DNA of 64,000 nt from Candidatus Chazhemtobacterium aquaticus (GCF_009936135.1 NZ_CP047901.1:563354-627353), one strand, 5' to 3'; shown: positions 21,087 through 25,809, counted from the stretch's first letter. A program made the numbers and translations. Notes: a model not told the origin generated them from the sequence alone.

Positions 21087-21169
21087 TGCCGAGGAGAGGA
21101 CTTGAACCTCCACGAGCTTGCGCTCACAGCGTCCTGAACGCTGCGTGTCTGCCATTCCACCACCTCGGC
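21087..21169 (-). tRNA. tRNA-Leu(CAG)
   Basis: Reverse complement is GCCGAGGTGGTGGAATGGCAGACACGCAGCGTTCAGGACGCTGTGAGCGCAAGCTCGTGGAGGTTCAAGTCCTCTCCTCGGCA. It has a long variable arm and anticodon loop TTCAGGA. Confidence 0.85.
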
Positions 21170-21206
21170 ATCAGGCATATTTTACCACTCAAAAAACTAT
21201 ATTGAT

Positions 21207-21863
21207 TTACTCCAACTCACTCATAAACTGGTTCACTCCAAAAGCCCAGGATCCATCAGATGGGGGAGTATATGTCCCCATTACTTCCTCAGCCTCGGTT
21301 CTGGATCCCTTGCTTAAGAACTTCTCCTTAAACTGGGGGGCAATCCTCTCTATCGCTTGCTCATATGACTCAAACCGGGTTATCTTCATTTCCCGACACT
21401 CATTTGCCTCACTATCATAATCCAAACACCATATGCCCCAACCCCAGCAGTTATATGAATCATCAGGAATCCGCTTACACAAATTCGACTCTTGCTGAGC
21501 AATAGCTACCAGCCATCTAAAATCAAAACCATTTTCATCTGATACCTTTACGATCAAATCAGCGTGTGGTTCAAGCGGGGATTCGTGTTTTGCAAGATAC
21601 TGCCGCAAAATCTCTGCTCTGGCATCAGCGGTTCCGATTGAGGTAATAAACTTGTTTTCAGGTGCTGGAATAGCTGCGTACATTAACTCAGGCACTCCAG
21701 TCGGTTGAATCTCGCTCACTAAAGGCGAAGCTAAGGGTACCGGCTTATCCATTTTTACATACATAAAAACAGAAGCCATTAACAAAGCTCCCGAGACACC
21801 GCTCCACACAGGTAGCAACCACAATTTCTTAAACATATCGTACGTCTCTACCCATACTCGCAA
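21207..21863 (-). CDS. Membrane-anchored lysozyme-like peptidoglycan hydrolase (SLT/GH23- or GH73-like)
   Basis: N-terminal TM anchor. FDFRWLVAIAQQESNL...NCWGWGIW resembles lytic-transglycosylase/glucosaminidase catalytic motifs (A.A.QES...G.G). The family assignment is approximate. Confidence 0.4.
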   Translation of the reverse strand: MRVWVETYDMFKKLWLLPVWSGVSGALLMASVFMYVKMDKPVPLASPLVSEIQPTGVPELMYAAIPAPENKFITSIGTADARAEILRQYLAKHESPLEPHADLIVKVSDENGFDFRWLVAIAQQESNLCKRIPDDSYNCWGWGIWCLDYDSEANECREMKITRFESYEQAIERIAPQFKEKFLSKGSRTEAEEVMGTYTPPSDGSWAFGVNQFMSELE

Positions 21864-21886
21864 GATTTAAGCTCATTGTCAACTTG

Positions 21887-21961
21887 CGCGCCTGGAGGGA
21901 CTCGAACCCCCATAAAACCCTGTTCCGAAGACAGGTGCCTTATCCATTAGGCCACAGGCGC
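21887..21961 (-). tRNA. tRNA-Arg(TCG)
   Basis: Reverse complement is GCGCCTGTGGCCTAATGGATAAGGCACCTGTCTTCGGAACAGGG...GGGGGTTCGAGTCCCTCCAGGCGC. Anticodon loop CTTCGGA. Confidence 0.8.
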
Positions 21962-22335
21962 ATATTTTAATTTCCAACTGTTATTCTCATGAGCTGTCTT
22001 TCTTCTATGGCAATTCGCACACCGGACCTCACACTTTCCAATCTCAGTCGAAATTGTTTTTAAAGACAAGCCTCCCTTTACCATATCACTAAGCGTGCAA
22101 CGCTTGTGCTTTCTATCTTTATGATCAAACTCTAAAACAGTTATATCCTTCTCACCACAATCAACACAAGGATGCGTTGATAAATATGTACCAACATACT
22201 GACGCGCCTCTTCTCTTACAACTACGTTTCTTCTTCGTGCTTTTTCAAGATAATATTTTCGATTCTCAACGTAATGCTGCCTTACATACTCTCTTGAACA
22301 CGCGGTGCAATATGTTGCACGAGTTTTATTTCTTC
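21962..22335 (-). pseudogene. 5'-truncated paralog of the HNH zinc-finger endonuclease gene at 24285..24734
   Basis: The minus-strand frame reads ...TRATYCTACSREYVRQHYVENRKYY...HPCVDCGEKDITVLEFDHKDRK...EIGKCEVRCANCHRRKTAHEN. This parallels the intact paralog (CKTCLRERGKSYYRKNRER...CKDCGQ...MDFDHRDE...CDIVCANCHRIRTY) but has no start codon and lacks the first ~30 codons. An IS200-family left end abuts it, and its 3' end runs into tRNA-Arg. Confidence 0.45.
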
Positions 22336-22339
22336 CTTA

Positions 22340-22920
22340 CAGGAAACCCCGCATGGAATAGCGTCACACGAGAGTAGTTAGCGTATGGAATGCGGGGATG
22401 AATGAGCATATCAGGCTGACCTGATATGCTGACTGCATGAGAAAGAGAAGCCTTAATCACTGTGCCTATCAACACCAGTACCATCTAGTCTGGGGAACAA
22501 AATACAGACGGAAATACATCAAGTCGTATGTCAAGGAAGAGTTGCTGTTAGAGTTACACCAACTGATCAAGAAATATCCCACACTGTATCTTTACGCTGT
22601 CAACACGGGTAGTGATCACATTCATCTACAAATTGAGATTTCACCAGATATATCAGTAGCCAGGGTGGTTCAAAGGATTAAGACATATACCAGCTTTCGA
22701 TTAAAGAAAAAATTTAAGTTCATCAGGAAGATATATCTGGACTCTGGTATCTGGAGTGTGGGATATTTCTCATCAACAGTGGGTTTAAACGAGACTTACC
22801 TTCCAGTTAAACTCGGATACATTTTTTCTTTTCTGACAGCGCGGACATGTCTTAAACACAACTGTTTTAATTATATCAATGTACACTTCGAAAATTAAAT
22901 ATGATTTCGAAGTATAGAAA
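22340..22920 (+). mobile_element. IS200/IS605-family insertion sequence (tnpA only) with subterminal hairpins
   Basis: The tnpA ORF is flanked by imperfect palindromes typical of the family. Left end: CCCCGCAT...ATGCGGGG (22347-22397) and AGCATATCAGG-ctga-CCTGATATGCT (22405-22430). Right end: ACTTCGAAA-11nt-TTTCGAAGT (22885-22913). Confidence 0.6.
22437..22898 (+). CDS. tnpA: IS200-like Y1 (HUH) transposase TnpA
   Basis: YHLVWGTKYRRKYI and the HuH motif SDHIHLQIEI. Catalytic Tyr region SVGYFSSTVG. At 153 aa it has the right size for IS200 TnpA. Confidence 0.85.
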   Translation: MRKRSLNHCAYQHQYHLVWGTKYRRKYIKSYVKEELLLELHQLIKKYPTLYLYAVNTGSDHIHLQIEISPDISVARVVQRIKTYTSFRLKKKFKFIRKIYLDSGIWSVGYFSSTVGLNETYLPVKLGYIFSFLTARTCLKHNCFNYINVHFEN

Positions 22921-22944
22921 CTAAACTCAGATAACGCATTCGTG

Positions 22945-24166: not shown

Positions 24167-24239
24167 GCCAAGCTAGCCAAGGTGGTCACGGCGCGTGTCT
24201 GAAAAACACGAGATTGAGGTTCGACTCCTCAGCTTGGCA
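24167..24239 (+). tRNA. tRNA-Phe(GAA)
   Basis: GCCAAGCTAGCCAAGGTGGTCACGGCGCGTGTCTGAAAAACACGAGATTGAGGTTCGACTCCTCAGCTTGGCA. Anticodon loop CTGAAAA. The D-arm is atypical, with a short stem. Confidence 0.7.
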
Positions 24240-24284
24240 CAAAATACTTGAACTAGTCGCAACCCAAGGGATAACATAATTGTA

Positions 24285-24734
24285 ATGAAGACATGCTCCA
24301 GATGTCACCTTAGTAAGGATTTATCCGAATTCTATTTACGCAAAACCGGCAGGAAAGCAGGGCAATATTACAACCACTGTAAAACGTGTCTCAGAGAGAG
24401 GGGAAAATCTTATTACAGGAAAAACAGAGAGAGGCAGCTCTTCCTATCAAACCAAAGAAGAAAAAAATACGTAATTCTCAAAAAGAAGCTAGTATATAGT
24501 CTCAAAAACAAGCCGTGTAAAGATTGTGGCCAAAGATTTCCTCACTACGTTATGGACTTCGACCATCGCGATGAGACAACCAAGATCGGAAATATCGCCC
24601 ACTTAGTCAGCCAAAACTACTACTCAAAAACAAAACTACTTGCAGAAATCAACAAATGTGACATCGTCTGCGCTAATTGCCATCGCATAAGAACCTACAA
24701 ACACAAAATACGCACCATAAACAAAGTTTATTGA
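24285..24734 (+). CDS. HNH endonuclease with N-terminal zinc-ribbon (homing-endonuclease-like)
   Basis: CSRCH...CKTC Cys pairs at the N-terminus. The HNH core CKDCGQRFPHYVMDFDHRDE...NIAHLVS...EINKCDIVCANCH provides the His-Asn-His triad and Zn-binding Cys residues. Confidence 0.7.
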   Translation: MKTCSRCHLSKDLSEFYLRKTGRKAGQYYNHCKTCLRERGKSYYRKNRERQLFLSNQRRKKYVILKKKLVYSLKNKPCKDCGQRFPHYVMDFDHRDETTKIGNIAHLVSQNYYSKTKLLAEINKCDIVCANCHRIRTYKHKIRTINKVY

Positions 24735-24750
24735 TATAATAATAGAACCT

Positions 24751-24826
24751 GCGGTGGTAGTTCAGTTGGTAGAACGTCTCCTTGCCAAGGAGAAGGTCGC
24801 CGGTTCGAATCCGGTCCGCCGCTCCA
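24751..24826 (+). tRNA. tRNA-Gly(GCC), CCA encoded
   Basis: GCGGTGGTAGTTCAGTTGGTAGAACGTCTCCTTGCCAAGGAGAAGGTCGCCGGTTCGAATCCGGTCCGCCGCTCCA. Anticodon loop TTGCCAA. Confidence 0.85.
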
Positions 24827-24832
24827 CACATT

Positions 24833-25705
24833 ATGACGGAACTTTTTGACCAGTACGACTATACTCACCAACGCATTCAAAACAGTCTGGTGTTAGCCTA
24901 TCTCAAGGAAGGGTCAGTAAATGCTATTCTCCCTCAGTTTCCTGAGGTGCCTGAACAAACTGCCCACAACTGGCTTGATGCCTACGACATAGTTAAACTC
25001 CAGGGTCGCAAACCCAATCCATTAGGTTCTGTCCTATACTTCCTGTCTCAATGGGTAGCCGCCAAAGATATTCCTCTAGAACGTTGGTACCGCGAATACA
25101 CGCCTCATCGTATTCGAGAAGTTCTCTCCACACCTAGTCTCCATCGAGTTGTTGATCACATTCGCCGGCTTACCACCAGGCTTTCCGCTACTGCCCTCAT
25201 TATCACTCCTCAAGACGCTCCAGAGCATATCTTAGTTGGTCATGACATTACCACCCCCAATCCTCAAGTAGGTAAAACCTTCGGCTCATTATCTCTACCC
25301 ATGACCTATTCCAATACCGGTGAGCCGCCCCAACTCTCAATTAAACGAGTTCTTCAGCAAGAGGTTTTTTCCAATCTTGTTTTAAGCAAAGACTTTCCAG
25401 ACTGGCTTATACCCGATGAGCTACAACCCTTCATGCACGTAGCCGTCGCTGACGTTGATGTGGCTGCATATCACCTTCAGATCCCCTGGGAGCTTACTGA
25501 TAGTTTTAGTAGTCCCAAGCTTGATGGACTTAAACTTACTCCGCTAGACCAACTTCTTAAGCACCATCCGCTGGATACCTCTATACGATCAGGTGTAGTT
25601 GAGATAGCCAGCGGACATTCATCCTATATCAACCAACCTCAAACAGAACCCATCACCTGGGCTCTATCACGCTTAAACGAAGAAATACTGCTCGCTCGCC
25701 TCTAA
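24833..25705 (+). CDS. Hypothetical protein (orphan). The ORF-track start at 24782 was trimmed because it overlaps tRNA-Gly.
   Basis: The ORF is open from MTELFDQYDY... No recognisable motif. Its composition resembles the other GC-richer orphans in the window. Confidence 0.45.
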   Translation: MTELFDQYDYTHQRIQNSLVLAYLKEGSVNAILPQFPEVPEQTAHNWLDAYDIVKLQGRKPNPLGSVLYFLSQWVAAKDIPLERWYREYTPHRIREVLSTPSLHRVVDHIRRLTTRLSATALIITPQDAPEHILVGHDITTPNPQVGKTFGSLSLPMTYSNTGEPPQLSIKRVLQQEVFSNLVLSKDFPDWLIPDELQPFMHVAVADVDVAAYHLQIPWELTDSFSSPKLDGLKLTPLDQLLKHHPLDTSIRSGVVEIASGHSSYINQPQTEPITWALSRLNEEILLARL

Positions 25706-25735
25706 GAGCCTCAAAATGTTAAAATATCCCAATCT

Positions 25736-25809
25736 TGCCGGATCGTCTAATGGTAGGACACCACCCTTTGAAGGTGGTTATCTAGGTTCGAACCCTAGTC
25801 CGGCAACCA
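25736..25809 (+). tRNA. tRNA-Gln(TTG), CCA encoded
   Basis: TGCCGGATCGTCTAATGGTAGGACACCACCCTTTGAAGGTGGTTATCTAGGTTCGAACCCTAGTCCGGCAACCA. Anticodon loop CTTTGAA. Confidence 0.8.

Follow-up and report, generated by a model that had tools for sequence, protein, structure and literature searches.

The closest known counterparts of the locus described here are SegB of phage T4 and F-TflI/II/IV of phage T5. SegB is a GIY-YIG free-standing homing endonuclease of the T4 tRNA gene cluster, encoded between two tRNA genes of the tRNA operon and transcribed with the tRNA precursor (PMC2330249). Close relatives lack it in tRNA regions that are homologous in other respects; it spreads along with the tRNA markers on its flanks and recognises the tRNA T-psi-C motif (PMC2330249). 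Processing of the downstream tRNA parts the stop codon from the SegB open reading frame, and an RNase P-type processing limit on expression has already been proposed for this gene (PMC2330249). In the description on which we draw, F-TflI/II/IV are HNH endonucleases whose genes belong to the tRNA gene cluster of T5 (Akulenko et al. 2004, as cited in PMC2330249). Mycobacteria have HNH-bearing tRNA clusters that are variably present and redundant with the core tRNAs, and that were judged to be phage-derived and acquired by horizontal gene transfer (PMC6582537). In Patescibacteria, homing-endonuclease genes lie inside group I introns of tRNA genes, where the introns split the anticodon loop, and these endonucleases match Pfam PF01844 (PMC13011429).

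Here we consider an array of 14 tRNA genes in a Microgenomates/CPR bacterium, whose strand composition is typical of the order UBA1400. We think it likely that the array is the vertically inherited core tRNA cluster of the lineage, colonised by selfish HNH homing-endonuclease genes and by a dead IS200 fragment. Positions refer to the window, which is the whole 64-kb stretch of DNA that was analysed. The features are as follows.

21086-21169, minus strand: tRNA-Leu(CAG), a single gene with its own box upstream (ARAGORN; Rfam 52.4 bits)
21179-21187: extended -10 box TGGTAAAAT, a promoter motif preceding tRNA-Leu(CAG)
21207-21836, minus strand: gene for a membrane-anchored GH73-like peptidoglycan hydrolase, 209 aa
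21886-21961, minus strand: tRNA-Arg(TCG), whose first 15 nt double as the end of HNH#2 (ARAGORN, Rfam)
21947-22342, minus strand: 3' part of HNH#2 with the catalytic HNH domain, a pseudogene in this strain (phrog_2255, 1e-28; family HMM, 9e-37)
22343-22795, plus strand: IS200-family fragment inserted in HNH#2, comprising putative left-end hairpins and tnpA codons 1-119
22796-22886, minus strand: 5' part of HNH#2 with the N-terminal zinc ribbon, ...KTCPRCQKRKNVSEFNWKV (HMM positions 23-53, E=1e-4)
22944-23497, minus strand: six-tRNA operon block, with its promoter-like box at 23508-23516 (ARAGORN, Rfam)
23536-23766, minus strand: 76-aa open reading frame, called in siblings
23819-24240, plus strand: promoter-like box TGGTATAAT, then a block of four tRNAs, Leu(GAG), Leu(TAG), Val(TAC) and Phe(GAA)
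24285-24734, plus strand: HNH#1, a free-standing gene for an HNH endonuclease, intact, between tRNA-Phe and tRNA-Gly(GCC)
24751-24826, plus strand: tRNA-Gly(GCC) (ARAGORN, Rfam)
24833-25705, plus strand: gene for a conserved 290-aa protein, between tRNA-Gly(GCC) and tRNA-Gln(TTG)
25736-25809, plus strand: tRNA-Gln(TTG), with which the cluster ends on the right (ARAGORN, Rfam)

The ARAGORN run returned 14 canonical tRNAs with 14 different anticodons at 21086-25809, exactly those listed, with anticodons and strands, in an earlier sequence-only reading of this DNA. Their layout, with a block of six on the minus strand, a block of four on the plus strand and four singles, was the same in both. All score 52-76 bits against an Rfam threshold of 29. 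In transcription order, the six-tRNA block reads Leu(TAA), Pro(TGG), Gly(TCC), Arg(TCT), His(GTG) and Lys(CTT). The motif TGGTAWAAT occurs six times in the window against 1.75 expected, a count reached in 0 of 100 shuffles. Three of these occurrences are located 10-20 nt upstream of the tRNA-Leu genes CAG, TAA and GAG, and no HNH gene has one beside it. Of the three promoter-like boxes, one stands before tRNA-Leu(CAG) and the other two before divergent operons of 6-7 and 4-6 tRNAs.

All four sibling contigs that span the array (92-99% nucleotide identity, from several independent samples) carry the 14 tRNAs in identical order, and six shorter ones carry matching subsets with the order unchanged, so that the comparison of synteny gave no sign of variable presence. 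The tRNA set and its local order recur in distant Microgenomates, including Woese-, Davies- and Collierbacteria, and one Woesebacteria locus has 12 of these tRNA types in about 7 kb. The 14 anticodons are non-redundant and complement three other tRNAs within the 64-kb window. A compositional deviation had been suggested as a mark of an island; GC content and GC skew are native across the array, the sole exception being the IS fragment (GC skew +0.09, z=3.1). Direct att-like repeats were looked for at the island ends, integrase and phage structural genes in the region, and DNA matches to the region among phage records; nothing was found beyond generic tRNA similarity. What varies is small inserts within the array and next to it, and the parts that move are probably the HNH genes; mobility of the array itself is not supported. 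Downstream of tRNA-Gln(TTG), the flank at 25810-25882 differs between strains.

A membrane-anchored lysozyme-like gene had been recognised from the sequence and is indeed present, with a lysozyme-like fold and a conserved catalytic Glu; its interpretation as phage lysis-like cargo does not hold. Its homologs across Microgenomates number 1353, at 50-60% identity, and together with the 290-aa gene it is linked to the same tRNAs in other species too. It is a conserved Microgenomates core gene. The 290-aa gene occupies the same position in other Microgenomates (34-39% identity in L013 and L014), and profile searches gave no family match for its product. The open reading frame behind a proposed small two-helix membrane protein exists as the 76-aa frame listed above.

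HNH#1, which had been noted as intact, encodes a zinc ribbon, a long helix and an HNH domain. It matches phrog_2255 'HNH endonuclease' (E=1.6e-31), and its AF2 model (pLDDT 94.5) has as its best PDB fold matches only HNH/beta-beta-alpha-Me nucleases. The conserved D-H...N...H of this catalytic domain and the zinc-binding Cys pairs are present. No Pfam model matches the HNH genes, and the proteins match none of the known defence families. Both genes are free-standing: the flanking tRNAs are complete and canonical, and Rfam intron families gave no hit in 20000-27000 at E<=0.01.

The sibling loci were picked by exact identity of the HNH#1 protein, and amino-acid identity is therefore given by construction; only synonymous and spacer identity is informative. 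The tract of tRNA-Phe, HNH#1 and tRNA-Gly extends over 700-754 bp with 0-1 mismatches to siblings, and beyond it, after the first 30-60 bp of the next gene, mismatches return at a rate of about one in 17 bp. In two sibling comparisons, where the flanking genes have pS of 0.16 and 0.23, HNH#1 would be expected to show 13.8 and 19.5 synonymous differences and shows 0 and 1 (Poisson P of 1e-6 and 7e-8), a deficit that has a P of only about 0.03 when measured against the least diverged gene. The population is a mosaic, with per-gene pS from 0.04 to 0.46, and in both strain comparisons HNH#1 has the lowest divergence of all genes. This pattern suggests the signature of a recent sweep or gene conversion with short co-converted flanks, rather than co-divergence with the flanks. 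An HNH#1-free Phe|Gly allele was not found among close relatives, and the two tRNA genes are directly adjacent in more distant species. Orthologs occur at the same Phe|Gly position in several species at 56-61% identity, and this shared position also fits long-term vertical retention or domestication.

HNH#2 has a different history. It had been described as 5'-truncated, and as forming with HNH#1 a pair of inverted copies that bound the island. Instead, the two are paralogs of about 32% identity located inside the array (between tRNAs 2 and 3, and 12 and 13), and HNH#2 is interrupted by a 453-bp insertion at 22343-22795, past which its first ~30 codons survive at 22796-22886. The 3' part is 99% identical to an intact 149/158-aa sibling gene. 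Its frame ends ...KYAPVA*, with the TAA at 21947-21949 inside tRNA-Arg(TCG). HNH#2 is intact in the sibling contigs L001, L003, L004, L007 and L008, absent in the siblings L010 and L002, and IS-disrupted in the window. In L010 and L002 a 41-45-bp spacer takes its place, with boundaries at the tRNA ends, and tRNA-Arg(TCG) follows tRNA-Lys in a seven-tRNA block. The differences in HNH#2 between strains are few and all non-synonymous.

The insertion is absent from all siblings. The IS200-family assignment made earlier is borne out by a Y1 transposase match at 22437-22790 (Pfam Y1_Tnp, E=5e-27, covering 2-109 of the 121 profile positions; NCBIfam, covering 2-114 of 126) and by the HUH motif DHIHLQI; two hairpins (22346-22397 and 22409-22432) are seen in the sequence upstream of tnpA. 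However, the tnpA stops at codon 119 without the catalytic-Tyr helix KKYIxxQ, whereas its relatives of 142-143 aa carry ...NEEQxKKYIxxQG..., and the 153-aa open reading frame is a chimera that runs into antisense HNH sequence. Comparison with siblings shows that no right end is present, because the sibling sequence resumes at 22796. Judged from its sequence, this copy is a dead 453-bp fragment lacking the catalytic tyrosine rather than an intact IS200/IS605 element.

The two HNH genes belong to a very large unnamed family whose members neighbour tRNA genes in bacteria of many phyla as well as in phages. Among 82 family genes from 80 species and at least 6 phyla, 73 lie no more than 90 bp from a tRNA, against 10.6% of the other open reading frames in the same loci, and 62 of these 73 are co-oriented with the tRNA. 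In about 28 of the 82, the stop codon falls within the tRNA that follows. Each clade keeps its own partner tRNA; for example, the clade upstream of tRNA-Gln(CTG) extends over Parcubacteria, Woesebacteria and Pyrinomonadaceae, and in each of these the gene neighbours that lineage's own tRNA-Gln (65-89% identical). Of 88 relatives on viral contigs, 34 have a tRNA within 90 bp, and members of the family occur in the tRNA arrays of Streptomyces phage TunaTartare (gp106, 40% identity, between tRNA-Arg(ACG) and tRNA-Arg(TCT)) and Myxococcus phage Mx1 (37% identity, reading into tRNA-Lys). The earlier view that these genes are of a homing type, in a family typical of phage tRNA arrays, thus appears to be correct.

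It seems likely that two paralogous free-standing HNH homing-endonuclease genes colonised tRNA-tRNA spacers. They point in the same direction as the tRNAs, and neither has a TGGTAWAAT box to itself, so that their transcripts probably form part of the tRNA precursor. The endonuclease would cut alleles that lack the HNH gene, at the junction of tRNA and spacer or close to it, and repair from an HNH-bearing copy, with the conserved tRNA genes as homology arms, would transfer the HNH gene together with short flanks. Since the tRNAs remain intact after insertion, the cost to the host would be low. In HNH#2 and the relatives whose open reading frame likewise extends into the tRNA that follows, RNase P processing may cut the mRNA before the stop codon, which would hold HNH expression low. 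The dead IS200 fragment would have disabled HNH#2 later.

The sequence-only reading took the whole 4.7-kb array to be a horizontally mobile, phage-derived tRNA island, with the HNH, IS and lysis-like genes as mobility functions or cargo. The abundance of the HNH family in phage tRNA arrays, the horizontally acquired HNH-carrying clusters of mycobacteria (PMC6582537) and the strain-variable genes that adjoin the array on both sides are in line with this. However, the array is invariant in every spanning sibling and conserved across Microgenomates families, its anticodons are non-redundant within the window, its composition is native, and wide conservation and synteny mark its lysozyme-fold gene as part of the core. 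Given also that no integrase, att repeat or phage gene was found in the region and that similarity to phage-record DNA is confined to generic tRNA matches, we regard an island origin as very improbable and already largely refuted.

Two other explanations accept a resident array and differ in what the HNH genes do there. The proteins could be domesticated host factors, co-expressed with the tRNAs and no longer selfish, that act as nucleases or regulators on tRNA genes, transcripts or invading DNA. Consistent embedding in, and co-orientation with, tRNA operons would fit such a role, as would the retention of HNH#1 orthologs at the Phe|Gly site in several species with streamlined genomes and the lack of amino-acid change in HNH#1 among siblings, though the loci were chosen that way. 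We consider it unlikely, given that HNH#2 is a dispensable gene, missing from two strains and broken by the IS in this one, and differs between strains only non-synonymously, that HNH#1 has the recent-sweep signature without co-divergence with its flanks, that the partner tRNA differs by clade in a family shared with phages, and that no known defence family was matched. Somewhat less likely still is passive accumulation, in which the tRNA spacers of compact genomes are permissive and highly transcribed, and homologous recombination of the ordinary kind between conserved tRNA genes shuffles anything that enters them, non-specific HNH genes included, without endonuclease-driven homing. Other unrelated small genes do vary at tRNA flanks in this population, which is visibly recombining (pS heterogeneity). 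Yet the 89% adjacency within 90 bp holds also in large genomes (Acidobacteriota, Actinomycetota), where permissive sites are plentiful; a clade keeps the same tRNA identity from one phylum to another; the frames abut the tRNA or end inside it with exact geometry; and HNH#1 is the gene with the least divergence in both comparisons of strains. Colonisation of an inherited cluster by homing genes remains our preferred reading.

Like SegB, the HNH genes lie inside a tRNA operon and appear to spread with flanking tRNA markers; HNH#2 is absent from some close relatives, and the geometry in which tRNA processing would remove the stop codon is shared by HNH#2 and about 28 of 82 relatives. Recognition of the T-psi-C motif by SegB is a plausible model for how the HNH family finds tRNA genes. 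The two cases differ in that SegB has a GIY-YIG fold, is a phage gene and has an activity shown by experiment, whereas here the fold is HNH, the setting is a bacterial core chromosome and activity is inferred. The T5 enzymes, as described, resemble the present case as HNH nucleases among tRNA genes, and so do the genes annotated 'HNH endonuclease' in the phage tRNA arrays of TunaTartare (gp106), Mx1 and Felixounavirus. In T5 and the other phages, however, the accessory tRNA arrays are themselves mobile, whereas the present array is probably the cell's own set, non-redundant within the window. The mycobacterial clusters likewise have an HNH endonuclease gene between tRNA blocks in a bacterial chromosome, but the cluster studied here is invariant, non-redundant within the window and conserved across the class. 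The intron case in Patescibacteria concerns the same phylum, with tRNA genes that house selfish DNA and HNH-type endonucleases; here the genes are instead free-standing in spacers, the tRNAs are uninterrupted and there is no Pfam match. Endonuclease genes in tRNA clusters were thus already known, and here they are chromosomal, in a bacterial core tRNA cluster.

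We consider it likely that the cluster of 14 tRNA genes at 21086-25809 is core chromosomal material, colonised by two homing-type HNH endonuclease genes, one of which was later killed by a dead IS200 fragment. ARAGORN predicts 17 tRNAs in the window, 14 of them in this cluster, and all 14 score 52-76 bits against the Rfam tRNA model (gathering score 29); Rfam found no RNA families other than tRNA in 20000-27000. The 14 anticodons are mutually distinct and complement the window's three remaining tRNAs, and anticodons, strands and block structure agree exactly with those read earlier from the sequence alone. 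The protein-coding features among the tRNAs are as follows.

21207-21836, minus strand: 209-aa membrane-anchored protein (hydrolase)
21947-22342, minus strand: 3' part of HNH#2, the paralog next to tRNA-Arg(TCG); open frame without a start, PHROG 2255 (1e-28)
22437-22790: match to an IS200-type Y1 transposase
23536-23766, minus strand: 76-aa ORF
24285-24734, plus strand: HNH#1, the intact endonuclease gene between tRNA-Phe and tRNA-Gly(GCC); PHROG 2255 'HNH endonuclease' (1.6e-31), without a Pfam or NCBIfam match
24833-25705, plus strand: 290-aa protein

The sequence-only reading had correctly recognised the intact HNH gene, and had suggested from the company of such genes that the array itself may be phage-derived or horizontally mobile. 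Ten sibling contigs from independent samples, 92-99% identical to the window, were found by exact look-up of the HNH#1 protein. In all four that cover the whole region the 14 tRNAs recur in unchanged order, the six shorter ones carry matching subsets, also in unchanged order, and variation among siblings consists of small inserts. Scanning the HNH family alignment against one genome per species gave 80 loci, and the Microgenomates among these have the same tRNA neighbourhoods as the window. For example, a Woesebacteria locus (L019) holds Leu-TAG, Leu-CAG, Leu-GAG, Val, Phe, Gly-GCC, Arg-TCT, Lys-CTT, Arg-TCG, Leu-TAA, Pro-TGG and Gly-TCC within ~7 kb. In Microgenomates loci Gly-GCC and Gln-TTG once more flank the 290-aa gene, and homologs of the hydrolase adjoin tRNA-Leu genes in several; across Microgenomates, 1353 homologs of the hydrolase are detectable, with 50-60% identity.

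Nothing att-like was found at 21080 or 25815, where such repeats had been proposed, and the repeat search returned tRNA-tRNA similarity only. No integrase or phage genes were found at the island, and its DNA shows only generic tRNA similarity to phage records. An integrative element using a tRNA att site was rejected, given the missing integrase and the tRNAs 16-44 bp away on either side of HNH#1. Compositional deviation, another expectation of a mobile island, is confined to the IS200 insert, whose GC skew of +0.09 is a 3.1-sd outlier (C makes up 27.5% and G 15.7% of the genome's plus strand); a native look is shared by HNH#2, the hydrolase, the 76-aa ORF and the 290-aa gene. Because sibling order, wider synteny, the att and integrase searches, the phage comparison and the mutually distinct anticodons all point the same way, a mobile or phage-derived array is unsupported. 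HNH genes among tRNAs do not, on their own, mark an array as phage-derived; in the present case mobility is confined to the nuclease genes, within an array that is probably core.

The remaining window is ordinary bacterial chromosome (uvrA, uvrB, uvrC, secG, PPDK, POR, ribosomal protein L19 and ABC transporters), and named homologs are from Microgenomates such as Collier-, Woese- and Roizmanbacteria. A Phage_holin_4_2 family protein (29781-30185, E=6e-15) lies between secG and uvrC; since siblings have it at the same position, we regard it as a chromosomal resident and not a prophage remnant. Neither the HNH proteins nor the 290-aa protein or the hydrolase matched a defence system in PADLOC. 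Strand asymmetry is strong throughout 1-64000, with a GC skew of about -0.28 in nearly all 1-kb bins whatever the gene orientation, in agreement with the G/C strand disparity reported in UBA1400 Microgenomates (Ch65, Collierbacteria, Beckwithbacteria; PMC7143001), a hint as to lineage. Besides the IS fragment, skew is positive (up to +0.16) only at 3750-4400, within a GT4 glycosyltransferase gene (3311-4453), and at 12850-13400, right after tRNA-Gly(CCC) (12713-12784) and beside a 359-aa ORF without a family match. These stretches may be recent acquisitions.

Two other sites at the island vary among strains. The slot between the hydrolase and tRNA-Arg(TCG) (window 21864-21885) is empty in the window and in siblings L007 and L010, and holds a 761-bp insert with a ~170-aa membrane protein in L001 (7306-8066), L003 and L004. 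In L002 (7973-8658) the same slot has an unrelated ~170-aa ORF, with tRNA-Arg(TCG) in an allele of only 80% identity. The flank after tRNA-Gln(TTG) (window 25810-25882) carries an extra 209-aa gene with a weak DUF2202 match (L001 11530-12222) in all siblings that cover it; the window is without this gene, and its 73-bp spacer there is matched by no sibling.

The population has HNH#2 in three allelic states: occupied, empty and decayed. An intact HNH#2 of 149/158 aa lies between tRNA-Lys(CTT) and tRNA-Arg(TCG) in five siblings. In L010 and L002 a mere 41-45-bp spacer replaces it, so that the minus-strand block there consists of seven tRNAs. Occupied and empty alleles have no spacer sequence in common, and their boundaries coincide with the tRNA ends. 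In the window the gene is split by a 453-bp insertion (22343-22795). It had been described as 5'-truncated, which is wrong: its first ~30 codons survive beyond the insertion at 22796-22886 on the minus strand, and the gene is thus interrupted.

The insertion consists of an IS200 left end and tnpA codons 1-119. The earlier call of an IS200-family element is borne out by the Y1 transposase match, but what is present is a dead fragment. Its relatives are 142-143 aa long and continue to ...NEEQxKKYIxxQG with the catalytic tyrosine, whereas the frame in the window enters antisense HNH#2 sequence after codon 119; an exact look-up of the resulting chimeric 153-aa 'TnpA' ORF returned no records. The fragment is 3'-truncated although the HNH#2 sequence is complete, and both junctions (22330-22345 and 22785-22800) show TTAC/CTTCC microhomology. 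A perfect 16-nt inverted repeat within tnpA (22570-22585 / 22755-22770) ends 25 nt short of the truncated end. Aberrant right-end use and capture at a break are among the possible origins of the fragment.

For HNH#1 the evidence is a tract of near-identity. The siblings were chosen for an identical HNH#1 protein, a choice that is uninformative on synonymous and non-coding sites. Between window and siblings there are 0-1 mismatches over 700-754 bp, a tract comprising the Val-Phe spacer, tRNA-Phe, a 44-bp spacer, HNH#1, a 16-bp spacer, tRNA-Gly and 30-60 bp of the next gene, past which mismatches return at about 1 per 17 bp. Pooled pS (Nei-Gojobori) of the flanking genes is 0.16 against L001 and 0.23 against L002, from which 13.8 and 19.5 synonymous differences are expected in HNH#1; 0 and 1 are observed (Poisson P 1e-6 and 7e-8). 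Per-gene pS spans 0.04-0.46, which argues for a recombining population, and against the least diverged gene P for HNH#1 is about 0.03. Judged by these substitutions, HNH#1 is anomalously young. A metagenome scan found no HNH#1-free Phe/Gly junction with the lineage's exact tRNA ends.

Three independent lines support the HNH genes as the mobile parts: the HNH#2 alleles, the HNH#1 tract, and the tie of their family to tRNAs. The family is very large, with 38,792 clusters (50% identity) at E<=1e-3 and 19,333 at E<=1e-10. Neither HNH protein had a meaningful match in Pfam or NCBIfam, and none of the 120 best homologs has a precomputed Pfam domain. The family profile met only spurious eL34 and zinc-finger matches among PDB sequences, and Foldseek against PDB gave nothing below E=0.4, with HNH entries at the top of the list (suggestive only). 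In many of the homologs in databases, 2-4 HNH domains are fused in tandem.

Of the 82 family genes in the 80 species loci, 73 overlap a tRNA or have one no more than 90 bp away, which holds for 10.6% of the other ORFs in these loci (100 aa or longer); 62 of these 73 point in the same direction as the tRNA. In about 28 the stop codon falls within the downstream tRNA (e.g., the TGA of the tRNA-Phe anticodon loop), which accounts for the recurrent '...AKVVTAGA' C-termini. In a neighbour-joining tree the proteins group by partner tRNA: Phe/HNH/Gly; Val/HNH/Phe; upstream of Gln(CTG); downstream of Arg(ACG); downstream of Pro(GGG); upstream of Pro(TGG); and Gly(TCC)/HNH/Thr. Members of the Gln(CTG) clade come from Parcubacteria, Woesebacteria and Pyrinomonadaceae, and their loci have 31-57% GC, each member beside its own host-type tRNA-Gln (65-89% identical). 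Phyla with family members include Patescibacteria, Acidobacteriota, Actinomycetota, Planctomycetota and Chloroflexota.

Viral contigs carry the family just as commonly; 34 of 88 genes there have a tRNA no further than 90 bp away, and they often sit in arrays of 17-31 tRNAs. Among cultured phages, gp106 of Streptomyces phage TunaTartare is flanked by tRNA-Arg(ACG) and tRNA-Arg(TCT), Myxococcus phage Mx1 has an unannotated homolog running into tRNA-Lys, and homologs also occur in Felixounaviruses and Pseudomonas phage PMG1. At the level of sequence, the reading of the HNH genes as endonucleases stands, in a family that is tied to tRNAs and present in cultured-phage tRNA arrays. Some tRNA clusters of genomes and viral contigs hold two or three family members (L016 1482-2027, L056, L077, L098, L114 and L154, the last with three among 31 tRNAs).

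We suspect that the HNH genes are transcribed within tRNA precursors. Both are co-oriented with their flanking tRNAs, and the first 15 nt of tRNA-Arg(TCG) are the last five codons and stop of HNH#2. The window has six copies of the motif TGGTAWAAT, against 1.75 expected and a number that none of the shuffles attained; each copy is directly upstream of a gene start, including 10-20 nt upstream of tRNA-Leu(CAG), tRNA-Leu(TAA) and tRNA-Leu(GAG); none of the six copies lies beside an HNH gene. It was more useful than a generic sigma-70 scan, which was uninformative (3 matches, 7.3 expected). The extended -10-like TGGTAAAAT is found on the minus strand at 36221-36229, 39548-39556 and 61869-61877, directly upstream of uvrA, uvrB and the tRNA-Lys(TTT)/tRNA-Glu pair, and is probably the organism's main promoter signature.

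In the proposed mechanism, the endonuclease would cleave HNH-free alleles at or near the tRNA/spacer junction, and the conserved tRNA genes would serve as homology arms in repair, by which the gene and short flanks are copied. The genes are of homing type, with putative cleavage and target sites. Where the stop codon lies in a tRNA, an RNase P cut would leave a non-stop mRNA and low expression; since many members take their stop from the downstream tRNA, tRNA processing would throttle the expression of these members.

The 89% adjacency across phyla, the clade-specific partners and the stops within tRNAs suggest that this HNH lineage uses tRNA genes generally as landing pads. More tentatively, the family may be a dedicated lineage of tRNA-flank homing endonucleases, each clade bound to one tRNA identity, that cycles between phage tRNA arrays and core chromosomal tRNA operons in at least six bacterial phyla as a main agent of gene conversion, and possibly of tRNA-cluster assembly and exchange between phage and host. 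Annotation is affected, because family genes currently count as 'hypothetical', with ORF ends that overlap tRNAs. The results also bear on recombination within tRNA operons, and the family is a pool of possibly tRNA-sequence-specific nucleases.

This kind of element, a free-standing homing endonuclease gene in a tRNA cluster, is already known. T4 SegB lies between tRNA genes, recognises a tRNA motif (T-psi-C) and drives the inheritance of T4's tRNA region, and its low expression through tRNA processing before the stop codon was proposed in terms identical to ours (PMC2330249); F-TflI/II/IV are mentioned there as HNH genes of the T5 tRNA cluster. In tRNA clusters acquired by mycobacteria through lateral transfer, HNH genes were noted and taken as a sign of phage origin (PMC6582537). 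Group I introns, a few with HNH genes, are known from patescibacterial tRNA genes (PMC13011429); a group I intron or intein context was rejected here, given the intact tRNAs and the absence of an intron in the Rfam search. A full-text literature search of incomplete coverage returned no published description of this chromosomal HNH/tRNA pattern. Compared with the known systems, the setting here is the tRNA operons of a bacterium itself, probably non-redundant, and spread is supported by population evidence. It is a natural, population-level case of probable homing by a free-standing endonuclease in a CPR bacterium that is uncultivated. The HNH family, moreover, is one without a name, and its tRNA association holds across phyla; this family-wide claim is more novel than the window's own feature.
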